DNA from: Candidatus Pacearchaeota archaeon
GTDB taxonomy: Archaea; Nanobdellota; Nanobdellia; Pacearchaeales; GW2011-AR1
DNA: 11,468 bases
Assembly (NCBI GenBank): GCA_016866975.1
Contig: VGKP01000019.1
Span: 1-11,468 of the forward strand
Reading direction: 5' to 3'
Shown: one piece after another, positions 1 to 6,487 of the stretch
Numbering within the stretch: the stretch's first letter is position 1
Layout of the letters: every line of letters begins with the position of its first letter
Notes under the pieces: model-generated
Seen by the model: only the letters and a program-made list of their open reading frames with translations
Told to the model about the DNA's origin: nothing
Database searches by the model: none
Position numbers and translations under genes: made by a program

Positions 1-3000
1 CCTACTGCTCCAGATAAGCTTGCGCTCCCGCTTATGCATTCTTTTTCAGATGTCACCTGATTGTTCTTAATTTCTTCTTTCACAAATTCATCTCTTATTT
101 GGTTGACTGCAAAGCTTGTCGATACCTGCTTGAACCCGCATTCTTCCTGTCCGTTGACATCTACGCAAAGTTCCTTGTATCCTTCAGGAGCTGTGAAATC
201 TTTTGTCTGTGTGGCATATTCCCCTCTTGATATATACCCTGCCGCGACAGGTAGGAACTGTGAAGAGTAATAGTAGCTTGTATCTGGAGGATTCCTTAGA
301 TATACTCTGTATTGCACTCCGCTGTCTTTCCCTGCAAATATATGGTAGAATACCTTATATTGAGCAGTCGCAGGCACAGTAGCGTCTGAATATTTGATAC
401 TGCTAAACCATGCATGGAACTGAGGCGGACTGTCTGGTTCAACAAGGCTGTCAAACTTTGTAGGAACTCCGGCAGATACAAATGCCTTGCATACTTGGGT
501 TCCTGCATCTTCTATTGATCTTACCCTATATGCCTTGAGTGAGTTTACTGCATATGTCTGTGTGAAATAATCAAGGGACTTTTGCATATTTTGCCATGCA
601 CCCATCACAGTCATGTATTCTCCTCCTCCTCTGGCTCCCTGATTGCCCCCATAAGCTGCCTCTACAAGTTTTGGAATTATCACATTTGCCAAAGGCGCCA
701 TTTGCCTCCAGAAGAATTCACAAAGATAAACTGAAGTTATCTGGTCACATATCCCTACGGTCTTCCCGCTCTTTATGTTCTCGGCCAAGCAATCTCTATG
801 AGATTTTAATATAGAAACATAAGAATCTATTCCTGCATGTATCCCTGTTAGGCACACTGGGACAACAATCTTTTCTCTCGCATTTGGAAGGCAAAGCAAT
901 GTGCTTCCAATGATTCCGCTCTGCACCACATCTGCCACAGGATATTTGCCTCCAAAGTCGCATCTGCTTGCAGGACATATGACTGGGTCACACACATTAA
1001 ACAAGAGGTGGCAGTCTTTCGGATCCATAAAGTCTTGGCACTGTACTGCAGGTATGTTCGCCGCAGCTTTCACATTTGTGAATACTTCATTTCCTATCTT
1101 TATCGGCTTGTTCCCATATTGTTGTGCCGCTTCTGTCAGGGCCTTTACTGCCTTGTTCACCAAATCTCTCGTCTGTTCCTCATTCAAACCTGGGAAATGC
1201 GCCAATGTCTGGCCAGTATTAAGATTCATCAACTCGCAGAGGTCATCTCCAAATCCTGCCTGTTGGAATTCTTCCCTCTTGTTGCTCCCTACATTGCACA
1301 ACCAGAAGCTAGAGACTCTTCCTGACGATTCAAATCCTGCTACTCCCCCAAATGTTGGCAGCGTCTGTTTAGTGGCGGCATACCATCCATGCAAAGTATC
1401 AAATGGCACTACTGCAGGCATTCCTTTGTAAGGTTCAGTCTCAAAGAATTTTATTTCTGGACTCTCATACCTATTGCTGTAGATTACTTGGTCTTGCGCT
1501 ATGATTGGCCCGACATTATAAGCTGAAGTAAACACAATTGCCTCATCCTTTGTTAATAATTTTGGTTTTCCTGATGGAGGCATATGCACTATATTCTGTA
1601 CGGCATAACTCCCTTGTGATGTCTGCCTTACTCCTGCTACGTATGTCCCTCCATCTATCCTTAATCCTCTGGTAGAGTCAATATATCCATTTACATTTAT
1701 AGCCACTGTCCTATCTATATCTATGCTTTCATTATCCTTTGTCAGCTCATTTTTTAACTCATCAGATGTTAATTTATCAATAGGCACTACCACGGCTATC
1801 ACTTTCTGCTGCGTCCCTGCAGTAAGGAAAGTGGCCGATCCAAGGCCCTGCTTCTTGAGCTCTTCATCTTGTATCTGTTTCTTTCTTAATTGTTTGTTCA
1901 AGGTTATCTGCTCTTCATACTTCTTAAGGTCAGAATTGAGATTGTCTCTAGTTGTATCAGTCACCCCATTCCTTTTTGACAATATTGCTTGCTCTATGTT
2001 TCTCAATGTAGTATAGTCACATTCGAAATGCTCATAGCAATCCGCATTTATCAATTCAGTCAATTTCTTTTCCCCTACCATCTCTTCAGGATATGTTTTT
2101 CTTAGATGCTCTGCATACTCTTTGGCAGCCACTCTTGTGTTCACACTCTTCTCTCCAAGCAATCCAGACTTAGTTACTTTCCCTTCTTCTATTGATTTTA
2201 CTCTCTGGTTGACTTGCCTTATTGCCTCAGATTGCGCCTTCACGTCGGCATTTATCTTGTCTGCCTCTCCAAGAAAACACTGATTTAGAGTATCATATTT
2301 TTTATCGCTTATTAGTTGATTGCACTTGCTCGTCCATCCCTTAGGGCCTCTCATGACCTGTTGTCTCGCAATGCCGTCTCCTGTAAATCCAGTCAGGAAT
2401 GTCTTTGCCGTAAGCACTGCAGATGTTGCAAAACATACGCTCTTCAATCCCGTCACGACTTTCTCCAGGTTCTTGTTTATGCTCTCCCATTTCTTTATGC
2501 TCTCATTTAAGTTCTCTATCTTTTCCAATGCTTTGTCAGGAGATAACTTTATCGCTCTCTTCTCTATCCCAATCCCCACCGATACATTTACTTCACTTCT
2601 GGTCCCAACAACTTTAGGTATCAGTCTTATCTTTGCCGCCTTTCTTACATTTATCTTATCTAATGTCACAAACTGTCCGCATATATCTCTTGCAGGATCT
2701 CCAACTTTCAATACCATTGTGCTAAGTTGTATTTTATCCCCATTCTTGACGTTTACGCAAGTAGGAGTTATCTTTGCTTCTTCTCCATTTAGGTCATCAA
2801 GTCTTATGCTCCCTACTATATCCTTCTTGCTTTCCCCTTTTACAGTTTTTGTTATTTCTATATCTCTTGTTTCTCTCCAGTTCAATCTTTTCAACCCAGG
2901 TTCATTGGCAAATTGTAATTCTACATAACTCCCACTAGATACATCAGTTATTGATGCAACTCTAAGTGTCCTGAACTTTCCATCTAAAGATACAACGCTG

Positions 3001-4616
3001 GAGGATAATGATGTATCATACTGATAGAGTTCCTGCAATCTCCCACTATATCCTGTCGAAGTCCCTGGATACAATTCTATATACTTCTGTATCAATCTTG
3101 CTTCATCATAGTTCTTCCCAAACTGCCTTGCAAGCAATATTGCAGATTCAAGAGCTTTTGCTCCATAAGTTGGATTGTACACAGATGTTGCCTTTACATC
3201 TCTTATAGGATCTACTGGATGCTCTTTTGCCACTTGCTCATAAGCATTGAGGGCCTCTTGATATGCTTTCTCCATATCAGATGTCAATTCCTTGTCTTGC
3301 TTCAACTGCAATTCTCCAGAAGTAACTTCCCTATGGTCGCTCCCAGAGCTTATGTTGTATCTTCCATTTCCGAGATACTCTCTGATAGTCCACATTTTTC
3401 CTTGCTTGTCTCCTGCCCACGTTACAAAGTCCCCAGTTACAAACGCGGCTATTTTCTGCCTTATTTTAAGCAATGCTCTCTCTCCGCTGCTACAGCTTAT
3501 GCTTACATTTCCAGAACTGTTGGTTGTCCCATCTACATATATCCTATCGACCCTGCATCTTCCATCCAAGAATGTACTTCCTTCAACAACATCTACGCTA
3601 TCAAGTCCTGAAGTATCCCCTACTTCTATTCTTGCTTTCTTTCCGACTCCAACATATTCATCATATGATGCTTGCAGCCCGGCCTGGCAATAGCTCCCTG
3701 GCAGATATATCGGATTAGAAAGCCTTCCTCTCTCTACTCTTGTCCCTGCTATTTTTCTGTCCTGGAAATATATGCTTAAATCAGCAAATCTCTCATTGAG
3801 ATTTTCAACCCTTACTGAGTATCTACCCTGCCAGAAACTTTGATTCTTGCTCTCTGTCTCTGCCCAAGTCTCATCATCTACAGGAGTAAGCAGGAATTCT
3901 GCTCTTCCTATCCCAAGCGCATTTCCAGATTCATACTCCACTCTTGCAGATAATGTCAAATTCACAAATGAAGGTAATGACGATTCATTTGCATTCTTCC
4001 TAAGCACTATCACTGCATACCCAATATTGCTGGTCATGGGGCTTCCAAGAAGTCTATCTTTTGTCCTTAATGCTGCTCGTGCAGGATGGAATCCTGTGCT
4101 TATTACTTCCTTAGGATAATTTGCTCTAAACTGTATATTTCTTATCTCTCTTATATCAATCAAAGGATTAAGCTTGAGAGCATCAAGCTGGCAGAATACT
4201 GGAACATTTTGCTCCGCAATCAAGTCGCTTCTCACTACTGCTGGCTGGCATCCCGCAGGAGCTACTTGTATCAACAAGTCTTGTCTGGCTTCGCACTGTG
4301 ATTCTTTGTCTCTTTCTTCCAATATCGGCCAATATGTGCTAATATGTCCGCTATATGCTGTCTGGAAATCGGGCTGAGGTTGTGTTGTCGAATAGAAACT
4401 AGAGCTACTAGAATATCCTCCAAAATCGTTATATGCTGCAATAAATGGCAACATATATATTATTATCAAAAAAACGATGCGCCACTGCGGCTTAAAAGCC
4501 GCAGTTTGATGCAGGCGCTCGTTTTTTGGATGCTCAAGGAACAACTCCAGCTTAAAAGCTGGAGTTTTAGTCAAGTTCCTTGACATGAAAAGTATGGGGG
4601 CTATAAGAAGTCTCAT
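1..4616 (-). CDS. Giant secreted/surface hypothetical protein, >1538 aa, 3'-partial (runs off the left edge); Cys-rich, with TPR-like and coiled-coil segments
   Basis: Manual minus-strand translation is open from ATG 4616 to position 1 (MRLLIAPILFMSRN...WRIVFLIIIYMLPFIAAYNDFGG...CEARQDLLIQVAPAGCQPAVVRSDL...CQDFMDPKDCHLLFNVCDPVICPASRC...KECISGSASLSGAV). Codon phase is identical at both ends, and no ORF in this frame appears in the track, as expected if there is no stop. Purine-rich coding strand, AGA/AGG Arg codons, about 29 Cys and several N-x-S/T sequons. Start is uncertain (4616 or 4586). Confidence 0.93.
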   Translation of the reverse strand, partial: MRLLIAPILFMSRNLTKTPAFKLELFLEHPKNERLHQTAAFKPQWRIVFLIIIYMLPFIAAYNDFGGYSSSSSFYSTTQPQPDFQTAYSGHISTYWPILEERDKESQCEARQDLLIQVAPAGCQPAVVRSDLIAEQNVPVFCQLDALKLNPLIDIREIRNIQFRANYPKEVISTGFHPARAALRTKDRLLGSPMTSNIGYAVIVLRKNANESSLPSFVNLTLSARVEYESGNALGIGRAEFLLTPVDDETWAETESKNQSFWQGRYSVRVENLNERFADLSIYFQDRKIAGTRVERGRLSNPIYLPGSYCQAGLQASYDEYVGVGKKARIEVGDTSGLDSVDVVEGSTFLDGRCRVDRIYVDGTTNSSGNVSISCSSGERALLKIRQKIAAFVTGDFVTWAGDKQGKMWTIREYLGNGRYNISSGSDHREVTSGELQLKQDKELTSDMEKAYQEALNAYEQVAKEHPVDPIRDVKATSVYNPTYGAKALESAILLARQFGKNYDEARLIQKYIELYPGTSTGYSGRLQELYQYDTSLSSSVVSLDGKFRTLRVASITDVSSGSYVELQFANEPGLKRLNWRETRDIEITKTVKGESKKDIVGSIRLDDLNGEEAKITPTCVNVKNGDKIQLSTMVLKVGDPARDICGQFVTLDKINVRKAAKIRLIPKVVGTRSEVNVSVGIGIEKRAIKLSPDKALEKIENLNESIKKWESINKNLEKVVTGLKSVCFATSAVLTAKTFLTGFTGDGIARQQVMRGPKGWTSKCNQLISDKKYDTLNQCFLGEADKINADVKAQSEAIRQVNQRVKSIEEGKVTKSGLLGEKSVNTRVAAKEYAEHLRKTYPEEMVGEKKLTELINADCYEHFECDYTTLRNIEQAILSKRNGVTDTTRDNLNSDLKKYEEQITLNKQLRKKQIQDEELKKQGLGSATFLTAGTQQKVIAVVVPIDKLTSDELKNELTKDNESIDIDRTVAINVNGYIDSTRGLRIDGGTYVAGVRQTSQGSYAVQNIVHMPPSGKPKLLTKDEAIVFTSAYNVGPIIAQDQVIYSNRYESPEIKFFETEPYKGMPAVVPFDTLHGWYAATKQTLPTFGGVAGFESSGRVSSFWLCNVGSNKREEFQQAGFGDDLCELMNLNTGQTLAHFPGLNEEQTRDLVNKAVKALTEAAQQYGNKPIKIGNEVFTNVKAAANIPAVQCQDFMDPKDCHLLFNVCDPVICPASRCDFGGKYPVADVVQSGIIGSTLLCLPNAREKIVVPVCLTGIHAGIDSYVSILKSHRDCLAENIKSGKTVGICDQITSVYLCEFFWRQMAPLANVIIPKLVEAAYGGNQGARGGGEYMTVMGAWQNMQKSLDYFTQTYAVNSLKAYRVRSIEDAGTQVCKAFVSAGVPTKFDSLVEPDSPPQFHAWFSSIKYSDATVPATAQYKVFYHIFAGKDSGVQYRVYLRNPPDTSYYYSSQFLPVAAGYISRGEYATQTKDFTAPEGYKELCVDVNGQEECGFKQVSTSFAVNQIRDEFVKEEIKNNQVTSEKECISGSASLSGAV
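4465..4591. mobile_element. Twin-hairpin palindromic element (MITE/PATE-like, IS200/IS605-end-like) lying in frame in the 5' end of the giant CDS
   Basis: Hairpin 1: AAAAAACGA-T-GCGCC ACTGCGGCT TAAA AGCCGCAGT [TTGATGCA] GGCGC TCGTTTTTT (4469-4527). Hairpin 2: ATG-C-TCAAGGAAC AACTCCAGCT TAAA AGCTGGAGTT [TTAGTCAA] GTTCCTTGA CAT (4530-4586). The loops are 60 nt apart. Imperfect flanking direct repeats ATCAAAA (4465-4471) and ATGAAAA (4585-4591) are 120 nt apart. The hairpins are seen directly; mobility is inferred. Confidence 0.6.
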
Positions 4617-4666: not shown

Positions 4667-6487
4667 TCATTGTATATCCACTCCCGAATTGGCAAACAAT
4701 TCATAATTGTTCTGGAGTTGCTCCAAAGAGTTGGGTTTAGAAAATCCTTTCACATCTATTTTAAGAGTACCATTTCCAAGCATATCAGGAAGAAGATATA
4801 CTTCAGATGCTCCTCCTCCAACTATAGCTGATTCTATTTTGGTGGATGGCACAGTTATGTCAAAGCATTCCTCTTTTGTGCTCCCAAAAAATCCTAAAAT
4901 CCCTCCACTTGTCACTTTTGTGCACTCTCTCTTTGTTGTTGCAGGAAGAACTATGCTCGAATTTCCATAGATATATACACTGACATTGTATGCGCCTTCC
5001 GATAATTCAACTTTCTCAGAATTTGGCAACGACACTCCTATGCTCTTTGGCCCCTCGAATGTGACTAATGCTTGTCCAGACAATGGTTTTCTATCAACTG
5101 TCAATGACAATCCCACTTTATATTCTTTGTCAATCACTAACTCTGCCTTACTCTCTTTGCTGCTCGAGAATAGAACTTTCTTCTCAGCATATCCCTCTGC
5201 TCTTGCAATGATTTGCCCGTTTAAGCATGCAGGAGCCTTTGCCTTCAATGTACCATTCTTACTTTGACCAATACTACATTCCTGTTCAAAACATTGATAG
5301 CTTATGTTGGCATCAATTTTTCTCAATTGGACATCAAATATGTCAACTTCAATATCTTGCGTAGGGAATGCGCAGGCATTTGTCTTATCAACATTTTCAG
5401 CAATTCTTGCCCCCAATCCTTGTCTTGGGAGATTTTTATCTATGACTACCACGACTGGGAATTGGAATATCTCTCCATCATCTCTTACCAACTGAACCAT
5501 AACTGGAAATCTGACATCGTATACAAAATGGTATGGCGCATAGCAGAAACCCATCGCGCCCATTCCTTGTGAATTCCCTACAGGTTGTGCAATCATCAAA
5601 CTGCCTTGTGTTCCTGAAATCTCTATCTTTGTTGGCCAGTCCTGAGAATATCTAAAGATTGCAGGTATGGATGTTCCTGCATTTGTGTAGAAATAGTCAG
5701 AATCTTTATCTTTCCTTGTCTTTAAGCTGGCAATGTTAAGCTCAAGTGCATTCTTAATCTCACTCTCTACTTCTTGCACTTTCCATATTTTAGGAGTGCA
5801 ACTTATTTCAACTCCATCTACTGGGGCATAGAGTCTTAATACATCTTCAGCATATTTCTCCAGGAATGCATCTTCTTTCTGTCGTGAATATATTTCTACC
5901 GCCGAATTGAATAGCTCTCCAAATCCGCTTGATATCTCCACTTTATGTTGTGTCTTCCTGGCACTGCTATCTCCTTTACTTGCACCAATATCTGCATCTA
6001 CTTCTATTTGTATGCTTCTGCTCTGTATGCTGACACTTACTTTAGGATCTCCTCTCTTGACTTGCACACCTTGCACAGCAAAAGATTCGAAATCGCAGTC
6101 TTTCAGTCTGTCAGCTATGAACTCTCCCATCTCTTTCTCAATTCCTTGTTTGGTAGGTACATTTTCCTGCACGATGCCATTTCCAGATATAGACATCCAA
6201 TAGGGCACCCCAAATCCAAGAAATCCAAGCTGGGATGAAAATGGGGCATAATCACTACCAGGTACATATTCAGATTCTATGCGTCCACCTTGCGTTCCTG
6301 CAAGGTCTACTGCCGCTTTTGCTTCCTGTTCTATACAAGCAGCATAATAGTCATACACTGGAGAAAGCTCTGGAGGTACGCCCTTTACTCTTTCATCACT
6401 TCTGATAAAAAAGAACAACACTATTGCTGCTATAATCGCAAAAGCAACTATCACTATGACTGCCATCTGTCCCCTATCTCCTCTCAT
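4667..6487 (-). CDS. 606-aa surface protein with archaeal class III (type IV pilin-like) signal peptide; unknown function
   Basis: N-terminus MRGDRG/QMAVIVIVAFAIIAAIVLFFFI: charged leader, G/Q cleavage motif and hydrophobic helix. The rest is soluble, with paired Cys and N-x-S/T sequons (NIS, NGT, NVS, NSS). The start overlaps the upstream stop (ATGA, 6487-6484) and is preceded by GGGGG. Confidence 0.9.
   Translation of the reverse strand: MRGDRGQMAVIVIVAFAIIAAIVLFFFIRSDERVKGVPPELSPVYDYYAACIEQEAKAAVDLAGTQGGRIESEYVPGSDYAPFSSQLGFLGFGVPYWMSISGNGIVQENVPTKQGIEKEMGEFIADRLKDCDFESFAVQGVQVKRGDPKVSVSIQSRSIQIEVDADIGASKGDSSARKTQHKVEISSGFGELFNSAVEIYSRQKEDAFLEKYAEDVLRLYAPVDGVEISCTPKIWKVQEVESEIKNALELNIASLKTRKDKDSDYFYTNAGTSIPAIFRYSQDWPTKIEISGTQGSLMIAQPVGNSQGMGAMGFCYAPYHFVYDVRFPVMVQLVRDDGEIFQFPVVVVIDKNLPRQGLGARIAENVDKTNACAFPTQDIEVDIFDVQLRKIDANISYQCFEQECSIGQSKNGTLKAKAPACLNGQIIARAEGYAEKKVLFSSSKESKAELVIDKEYKVGLSLTVDRKPLSGQALVTFEGPKSIGVSLPNSEKVELSEGAYNVSVYIYGNSSIVLPATTKRECTKVTSGGILGFFGSTKEECFDITVPSTKIESAIVGGGASEVYLLPDMLGNGTLKIDVKGFSKPNSLEQLQNNYELFANSGVDIQ

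Follow-up and report, generated by a model that had tools for sequence, protein, structure and literature searches.

The window analysed in this study, 11,468 nucleotides (nt) at positions 1 to 11,468 of contig VGKP01000019.1 (assembly GCA_016866975.1), comes from a lake-water Candidatus Pacearchaeota and contains on its minus strand the gene of a giant secreted or surface protein (3..4616), whose signal peptide is split by a twin-hairpin element at 4465..4584. In our interpretation, which we hold to be likely, a non-autonomous IS200/IS605-type hairpin transposon of 120 nt has recently been inserted here, one that resembles the palindrome-associated transposable elements (PATEs) of haloarchaea. 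The insertion into the signal peptide is proved by the comparison of orthologues, and the element belongs to an already known kind of selfish DNA. Export of the giant protein probably continues, its signal peptide now being longer by 40 residues, and the insertion appears to be a tolerated accident, not an adaptation. The case offers a clean mechanistic example of how an essential-looking gene can harbour a selfish element and survive.

Insertion into the Signal Peptide of a Giant Protein

The source genome, G000 (805,708 bases in 31 contigs, designated here by C-numbers; 89% complete), was compared with 16 congeners, the 17 genomes of the genus being 62-91% complete; L-numbers designate loci in relatives or in the source genome. 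The long open reading frame (ORF) of the giant protein is open to the end of the window and belongs to no Pfam family. Exactly one orthologue is found in each of the 17 genomes, and 297 relatives were detected in species genomes and 483 in metagenome contigs. The N-termini of about 170 orthologues (loci L047-L137 and L192-L271) were compared: 11 from the genus, 80 from species genomes, and 80 from metagenome loci. Signal peptides were called by sequence form, that is, a basic n-region, a hydrophobic core, and small residues before the cleavage site. An ordinary signal peptide stands shortly before the conserved DFGG...YWP region in the 11 genus orthologues and in 79 of the 80 from species genomes, and none of the 80 metagenome loci holds the element; altogether, all but one of the roughly 170 orthologues lack it. 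An earlier reading of the same stretch from its letters (the sequence-only reading) had claimed that a palindromic element splits the signal peptide in frame, that a Sec-type signal is restored on its removal, and that the host is DPANN-like. The orthologues bear out the first two claims, placing the insertion in the h-region, and Candidatus Pacearchaeota indeed belongs to DPANN.

Whether read from ATG 4670 or from ATG 4616, the minus-strand frame meets no stop in the element or beyond it, up to the end of the window. Counted from ATG 4616, the insertion point lies between codons 10 and 11, and the protein as encoded reads MRLLIAPILF, 40 inserted residues, then IIYMLPFIAAYNDF. Taking out the 120 nt gives MRLLIAPILF-IIIYMLPFIAA/YNDFGG, whose MR, 19 hydrophobic residues, and AA/YNDF are similar in form and length to the MRIILAFFVLSIFILPASFGA/SDFGG of the orthologue in the congener G016. 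This match of the restored N-terminus to the nearest relatives supports ATG 4616 (4614..4616, minus strand; MRLL...) as the ancestral start codon: the G016 orthologue starts MRIILAFF..., and the distance to the DFGG motif fits after removal of the 120 nt. A remark on codon usage in the sequence-only reading was also correct, as the insert contains two CGC codons and the rest of the gene none among its 73 Arg codons.

In relatives the giant protein has 1,750-2,700 amino acids (aa), and it occurs once per genome across metagenome-assembled genomes labelled Pacearchaeota or Woesearchaeota. A conserved motif, ...FQTYY...(T/N)YWP, stands right behind its signal peptide, and its upstream neighbour is a conserved partner gene.

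Structure, Boundaries, and Copy Number of the Element

The boundaries of the element were derived from the alignment of all copies with their flanks, and split genes come back in frame once the 120 nt are taken out. The element proper (4465..4584, minus strand; subfamily A) thus comprises 120 nt, or 40 codons, and its sense ("top") strand runs from GTCAAGG to TTTTTTTGAT. An in-frame insert of 39 codons (117 nt) had been proposed earlier; the frame stands, and the size has to be increased by one codon. The left end reads ATGTCAAGG... and the right end ...TTTTTTTGAT, with no inverted pair joining the two, and the terminal pattern of the family is of the GTCAAGGAAC...TTTTTGAT type. The junction expected without the element is ...TTTTCAT joined straight to AATAATAT....

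The twin hairpin noticed earlier at 4465-4591 is real: the fold of the sense (minus) strand over 4455-4600 has an energy of -61.9 kcal/mol (z = -10.3, with none of 200 shuffles as good), and the fold of the plus strand has z = -7.9. Each hairpin consists of an outer stem, a one-sided bulge of 8-9 nt, and an 8-bp inner stem with the loop TTTTAA. The left inner hairpin (4544..4565, minus strand), seen in folds and in compensatory changes across 12 genomes, is enclosed by the outer stem 4575-4583/4534-4542, and the right one (4484..4505, minus strand), seen in folds, by the outer stem 4514-4527/4469-4483. The two 60-nt modules are homologous, as shown by a direct repeat (D11) at 60-nt spacing. 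Among 20 copies from 12 genomes, compensatory changes are found in 21 of the 44 stem pairs, and the linkers, loops, and ends are invariant. The right end is formed by the presumed cleavage tetranucleotide TGAT (4465..4468, minus strand), whose G-A-T is the same in all 20 aligned copies and which, together with the preceding T-run, encodes I-V-F-L-I in the frame of the gene.

Two familiar kinds of insert were considered and rejected. A classical miniature inverted-repeat transposable element has terminal inverted repeats and a target-site duplication made by a DDE transposase, and neither is present here. An archaeal bulge-helix-bulge intron has two 3-nt bulges on opposite strands, with a 4-bp helix between them, at its splice sites; by inspection, the single and consensus folds of the element contain one-sided bulges only, and its ends pair neither mutually nor with the flanks.

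The source genome contains about 70 loci of the twin-hairpin family, which puts the element far beyond chance and agrees with the earlier suggestion of a selfish palindromic element, and 11 copies, including that of the window, are 100% identical over 122 nt (flanking AT included). Subfamily A (122 nt with the constant AT at both ends) accounts for about 29 copies, subfamily B (120 nt, 118 nt net), which has a different left module and carries a stop, for about 21, and subfamily C for three; half copies are also present. Related copies of equal length and 78-89% identity occur in 13 of the 16 congeneric genomes and in two further genera. A search of Rfam with the element gave no family at E up to 1, and no description of such elements in Pacearchaeota or DPANN was found in the published literature. 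Copies also lie at contig ends of the source genome; metagenome contigs of the lake samples break within the element, and the depth of element words is more than 100 times that of the flanks.

Modular hairpin repeats are abundant throughout the source genome. Forms of 223 nt (C13:7454-7676, C2:40334-40670, C3:37448-37670) have extra mini-hairpins CCATCAAGAAT...ATTCTTGAGG nested in a loop and between modules, and a further repeat family is made of similar mini-hairpins (C4:43285-43363, C8:36366-36436, C2:56570-56642).

Target Site, Presumed Guide Bases, and Proposed Mode of Transposition

Immediately 5' of the left end lies the target tetranucleotide, here TCAT (4585..4588, minus strand), identified as such by the TTAT found at this position in most copies of the family. 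TTAT precedes 21 of 26 subfamily A copies and 15 of 18 subfamily B copies (36 of 44), versus 0.8% of genome sites, and the copy in the window is the sole A copy at TCAT. No flanking bases are duplicated beyond the constant AT, and the ends are not inverted. Because the sides of the copy L148 are unequal (AG on the left, AT on the right), the left AT belongs to the target and the right AT to the element, and the pair is not a duplication. The "imperfect direct repeats" TTTT(C/G)AT of the sequence-only reading prove to be the target TCAT and the element's own right end TGAT. In a removal test on a split gene, whose two parts match positions 28-222 and 225-275 of the HMUDK_hel profile, the gene closes without the 120 nt.

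IS608 pairs its cleavage site with four guide bases located 5' of each hairpin foot; it is inserted 3' of its target without gain or loss, and its left hairpin has its foot 19 nt from the cleavage site (PMC3201880). The corresponding distance in the element is also 19 nt. Its presumed left guide, TAAA (4566..4569, minus strand), immediately adjoins the foot of the left inner hairpin on its 5' side, and the second base of the guide covaries with the second base of the target across species. The presumed right guide, TCAA (4506..4509, minus strand), forms the last four bases of the one-sided bulge 4506-4513, and xCAA pairs with the own end TGAT in all copies read. The left guide was tested on 29 copies from 11 other genomes, among which only one of the four guide positions varies enough. 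Guide xAAA goes with target TTAT in 19 of 20 copies (A at guide base 2 with T in the target), and guide GCAA or ACAA, seen in three genomes, with TGA(T/G) in all three copies (C with G); guide ATAA goes with TAAT twice and with TGAT and TTAT once each (T with A in two of four).

The orientation of the copies is uniform per contig (8 of 8, 14 of 14, 5 of 5, 4 of 4, and 6 of 7), and relative to the nearest genes 37 copies have the same orientation and 36 the opposite one. Fork-coupled single-strand transposition ties orientation to the chromosome strand (PMC5027513), and the contig-wise polarity is as expected for such a process, the direction of replication itself not being fixed here. In the proposed mechanism, the element would move as single-stranded DNA, with an HUH/Y1-type transposase, supplied in trans, binding the two subterminal hairpins, and the four bases 5' of each hairpin foot would pair with the cleavage site. 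Such pairing would lead to entry 3' of the tetranucleotide (TTAT or, here, the near-match TCAT) without duplication. When IS200/IS605-type elements are excised, no scar is left and the donor site is re-formed (PMC3201880). The overall picture is that of a family of IS200/IS605-type hairpin transposons which is spreading through Pacearchaeota and whose guide-target relation can be read.

Open Frame and Fate of the Split Gene

The giant gene stays open because the element has 120 nt and because this frame, one of six, is without stops; a single stop-free frame out of six in subfamily A is about what chance gives for 40 codons. In this frame (frame 0) the target TTAT reads NTT|ATN, i.e., Phe, Leu, Ile, or Val followed by Ile or Met, and the right end ATC GTT TTT TTG AT reads Ile-Val-Phe-Leu-Ile/Met. 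Therefore, open-frame copies land between hydrophobic residues and bring a hydrophobic tail with them. The extended giant protein has KPQWR and a core of 15 residues, IVFLIIIYMLPFIAA, ahead of the untouched cleavage region AA/YNDF. The KPQWR-IVFL end and the remaining core make a plausible new signal peptide, as the sequence-only reading had surmised for the 3' end of the insert. Three properties of the element jointly determine the places in which an in-frame copy can persist: its length, its target rule, and its base composition.

The AT that closes the target and the G that begins the element form an ATG at every left junction, and this ATG opens the one open frame of the element. Copies upstream of genes could therefore make new upstream ORFs or N-terminal extensions.

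Two further signal-peptide insertions were found. The first, in the source genome (C8:6416-6537; L017:1501-1622), reads MKRAGVAFV, the same 40 residues, and ISAIAVFFLTLISVQG (ISAIAVFFLTL), and heads a 1,077-codon cysteine-rich secreted protein whose homologues in four congeners have plain signals. The second, L074:1369-1490 (JACPXY010000021.1) from a groundwater Pacearchaeota, affects an orthologous giant protein (51% identity): a 117-nt relative of subfamily C is inserted in frame after codon 6 of the signal peptide. The genome of L074 has two sister copies with 96-99% identity, which makes this insertion a separate recent event. All three signal-peptide insertions are young, being 96-100% identical to sister copies.

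Because of this youth, it is a real possibility, although in our view an unlikely one, that the insertion has crippled the gene, either because the core is split so that export fails, or because translation starts only downstream (TTG 4469 or ATG 4454) without a proper signal. With 100% identity to ten others, the copy has been exposed to selection only briefly; sister copies from the same burst clearly broke genes, and in the orthologues such an insert is not kept over time, with one young case in about 170. However, the protein is conserved across every genome of the genus and far beyond, so that its loss should be costly, and three independent insertions into signal peptides all use the single open frame. 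The rebuilt 15-residue core after KPQWR looks like that of an ordinary Sec signal, and a start at 4454 would leave only MLPFIAA ahead of the cleavage region. We prefer, as stated above, a tolerated insertion with export through an extended signal peptide.

A broader proposal is made more tentatively, and we regard it as possible but doubtful: frame-0 copies may be truly translated, the chemistry of the transposon itself making signal peptides and membrane helices safe harbours for it and the ATG of each left junction offering a further start, and seamless excision could render such insertions reversible. If this were true, surface proteins of symbiotic archaea would repeatedly gain transposon-derived, extended signal peptides.

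Points Against the Interpretation and the Search for a Transposase

Several points weigh against the interpretation of the element as a tolerated IS200/IS605-type insertion. The target TCAT of the window mismatches the TTAT of the family. An intact frame is no proof of tolerance yet, as all three signal-peptide insertions are young, and translation and export of the extended form are what we infer from the sequence. An empty-site allele of the source species was not found in lake contigs, with a joined-flank pattern, or among metagenome proteins, and for this reason the exact junction rests on the frames and on the family alignment. In the Logan contigs of four runs from four lake samples there was no joint without the element, which does not prove its absence, as contigs drop rare variants; the filled allele is present in contigs of three of the four samples. 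The joined-flank pattern, with a gap of 0-6 nt, had no matches in metagenome contigs, and by the protein route the best metagenome relative was 58% identical, so none was of the same species. The one candidate for a paralogous empty site in the genome (C4:33906) was rejected, a different repeat adjoining the element there. Finally, no transposase with matching ends was found: the hairpins at the Y1 (PF01797) genes of the source genome and of the genus are unrelated to those of the element, the Y1 loci of the genus have no sequence in common with it, and the congeners G008, G005, and G016, with 27-29 element matches, some of them mutually identical, have no PF01797 match even in a loose first look. 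The enzyme of these three congeners may be encoded on an unbinned replicon or be of another kind.

Y1 genes are present in the source genome, flanked by hairpins unrelated to those of the element, and PF01797 genes occur in 7 of the 17 genomes of the genus. A TnpB search of the source genome gave no match above the cut-off. Copies with a left end only were considered as a possible autonomous parent and discarded, because they are followed by ordinary genes (e.g., gyrA), not by a transposase. The missing transposase is the one question of wider interest, and the same enzyme puzzle is posed by the PATEs of Haloquadratum (PMC3119063).

Two types of IS200-like elements reside in the source genome (C6:1-230 and C12:26680-26912; C10:1-640). 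One type is multi-copy and probably active, since contig ends cut it at the same point in two contigs. The C10 copy has a 155-aa Y1 transposase between GC-rich hairpins.

Copies in Other Genes

The frames of subfamily A and C copies inside genes were counted after in silico removal of all copies. There are about 11-12 sense insertions in genes, 4-5 of them in frame 0, five in frame 1, and two in frame 2, and 2-5 antisense ones. With 4-5 of about 12 sense copies in the open frame and a third expected, no in-frame bias exists. The likeness to Rickettsia palindromic elements (RPEs) drawn in the sequence-only reading is therefore one of outcome only: five of the six frames contain stops, and genes are broken. 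The genes split encode a 5-hydroxymethyldeoxyuridine (5-hmdU)-kinase-like protein, a NUDIX protein, a MutS_V-like protein (a weak match, below the Pfam cut-off), a HAD hydrolase (antisense), and two proteins of unknown function (copies at C1:116277-116398, C25:5965-6086, C1:102325-102446, C2:34615-34736, C3:34014-34135, and C23:9231-9352). In genomes as small as these, such bursts disrupt genes of the DNA-modification, NUDIX, MutS-like, and HAD kinds and leave assemblies in fragments, and gene callers will give odd N-termini and split genes at element sites.

Some further observations concern these copies. Loss of the MutS-like gene might matter for the mutation rate. A subfamily C copy in the open frame (C8:20765-20886; L029) lies near the C-terminus of a DDE transposase gene (DDE_Tnp_1/ISC1217-like), so that one mobile element is found within another. 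About 14 of 27 subfamily A copies are inside genes versus about 3 of 19 copies of the equally young subfamily B, both having the target TTAT. A long sense ORF that surrounds one copy in G006 (L143) appears to mirror a gene on the opposite strand and was left out of the count. That the T7 run of the element stops transcription could not be argued, because the sense strand of genes shows no depletion of such runs (49 seen, 39 expected).

The same counts make it improbable that the family is a coding-adapted element of the RPE type, selected for in-frame insertion and translated as a protein module. Its length is divisible by three, subfamilies A and C and about 13 of 30 copies in relatives hold the same frame open with a similar peptide, and there are the three signal-peptide cases. 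However, the in-frame excess is absent and stops occur in the other five frames, as described above; subfamily B is 118 nt net and has a stop, many copies in relatives are closed, the stems are conserved through compensatory changes whereas the peptide is not, and the majority of copies lie between genes.

Still less probable is a reversible switch, also raised by the sequence-only reading as a control of export, in which precise Y1-driven excision would restore the short signal peptide and cause phase variation of the surface protein. The source genome does have Y1 genes, the target gene codes for a surface protein, and excision in this transposon family is seamless with restoration of the donor site (PMC3201880). 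But the contigs of the four lake runs, which cannot show rare variants, yielded the filled junction in three samples and the empty allele in none; every insertion of the family would be equally reversible, so that this site is not special, and the arrangement is not conserved in relatives.

Removal or bypass of the element at the RNA level, by an intron-like process or a translational hop that would leave genes with stop-bearing copies working, is hardly credible: the mostly sense orientation of copies within genes (about 11-12 versus 2-5), the exact 40-codon length, the very stable fold, and the more frequent presence of A than B inside genes could be cited for it, but orientation tracks the contig strand and not the genes, an antisense copy splits the HAD hydrolase gene, the fold has one-sided bulges of 8-9 nt only and no bulge-helix-bulge, Rfam gives no match, and the broken genes are all of dispensable kinds.

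Neighboring Genes

The gene upstream of the giant gene (4667..6487, minus strand) encodes 606 aa, matches no Pfam family, and forms an operon-like pair with it; in relatives as well, the giant gene is preceded by the conserved C-terminal codons of this gene. An alternative upstream ATG for the giant gene (4668..4670, minus strand), as read from the sequence, overlaps the stop codon of this preceding gene (ATGA) and has GGGAGTGGA ten bases ahead of it. Near the giant-protein operon the window also contains a pair of glycosyltransferase family 2 (GT2) genes (7001-8341/9052-9792) and a pair of PAP2_C-domain genes (8336-8971/10505-11140). DNA stretches with 70-75% identity recur in these pairs at spacings of about 1.5 and 2.2 kb (repeats D1, D2, D4), a pattern suggesting that a GT2 and PAP2_C module beside the operon was duplicated in tandem long ago.

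Comparison with Known Systems

The new points of this analysis are the orthologue comparison, the independent case of L074, the frame-0 rule, and the existence of several element-rich congeners without a match to a Y1 gene. Among known systems, the repetitive extragenic palindromic sequences (REPs) and bacterial interspersed mosaic elements (BIMEs) with the REP-associated tyrosine transposase RAYT (TnpA-REP) are also hairpin repeats, thought to be handled by Y1-type HUH enzymes (PMC3333891), and some of the genomes considered here have a Y1 gene. However, REPs are 20-40 nt long, extragenic, and arranged in head-to-head pairs (PMC3333891), whereas the element has two hairpins in the same direction and distinct left and right ends, and is inserted in genes as well.

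The RPEs (reviewed in PMC10969869) resemble the element as small palindromic repeats of a symbiont with a reduced genome that can add an in-frame peptide segment to a protein. In-frame insertion of RPEs is far above chance (PMC10969869), in contrast to the element, which has no such bias and breaks genes with many of its copies. The mechanism of RPEs is unknown, while the element family bears hallmarks of the IS200/IS605 type, and there is no sequence relation between the two, the host being from the domain Archaea.

IS608 and ISDra2 (PMC3201880, PMC5027513) share the geometry of the element. The left cleavage site is outside, 19 nt 5' of the hairpin foot, and the right one is inside, 3' of its hairpin; each foot has, on its 5' side, four bases matching the tetranucleotide that is cleaved or targeted, and insertion occurs 3' of the target without gain or loss, with an orientation tied to the chromosome strand. 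The element differs in that it has no internal tnpA or tnpB, its right site is 15 nt from the foot as compared with 10, and its target is TTAT instead of TTAC; no enzyme for it was found.

The closest parallel is provided by the PATEs of Haloquadratum walsbyi and other haloarchaea (PMC3119063). Like the element, they are too short for a transposase and lack terminal inverted repeats, have similar palindromes near both ends, and occur in bursts of near-identical copies; they make no target duplication, have a short fixed oligonucleotide on the 5' side, and are mobile even where intact IS200-type transposases are scarce. The element differs from them in its freshwater DPANN host, in the absence of a sequence relation to a resident IS605-type transposon, in having each hairpin inside a second, outer stem, in forming a modular family of 60-nt units with nested extra hairpins, and in having no TnpB partner. 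Overall, the features of the element are those of the published PATE definition (PMC3119063).

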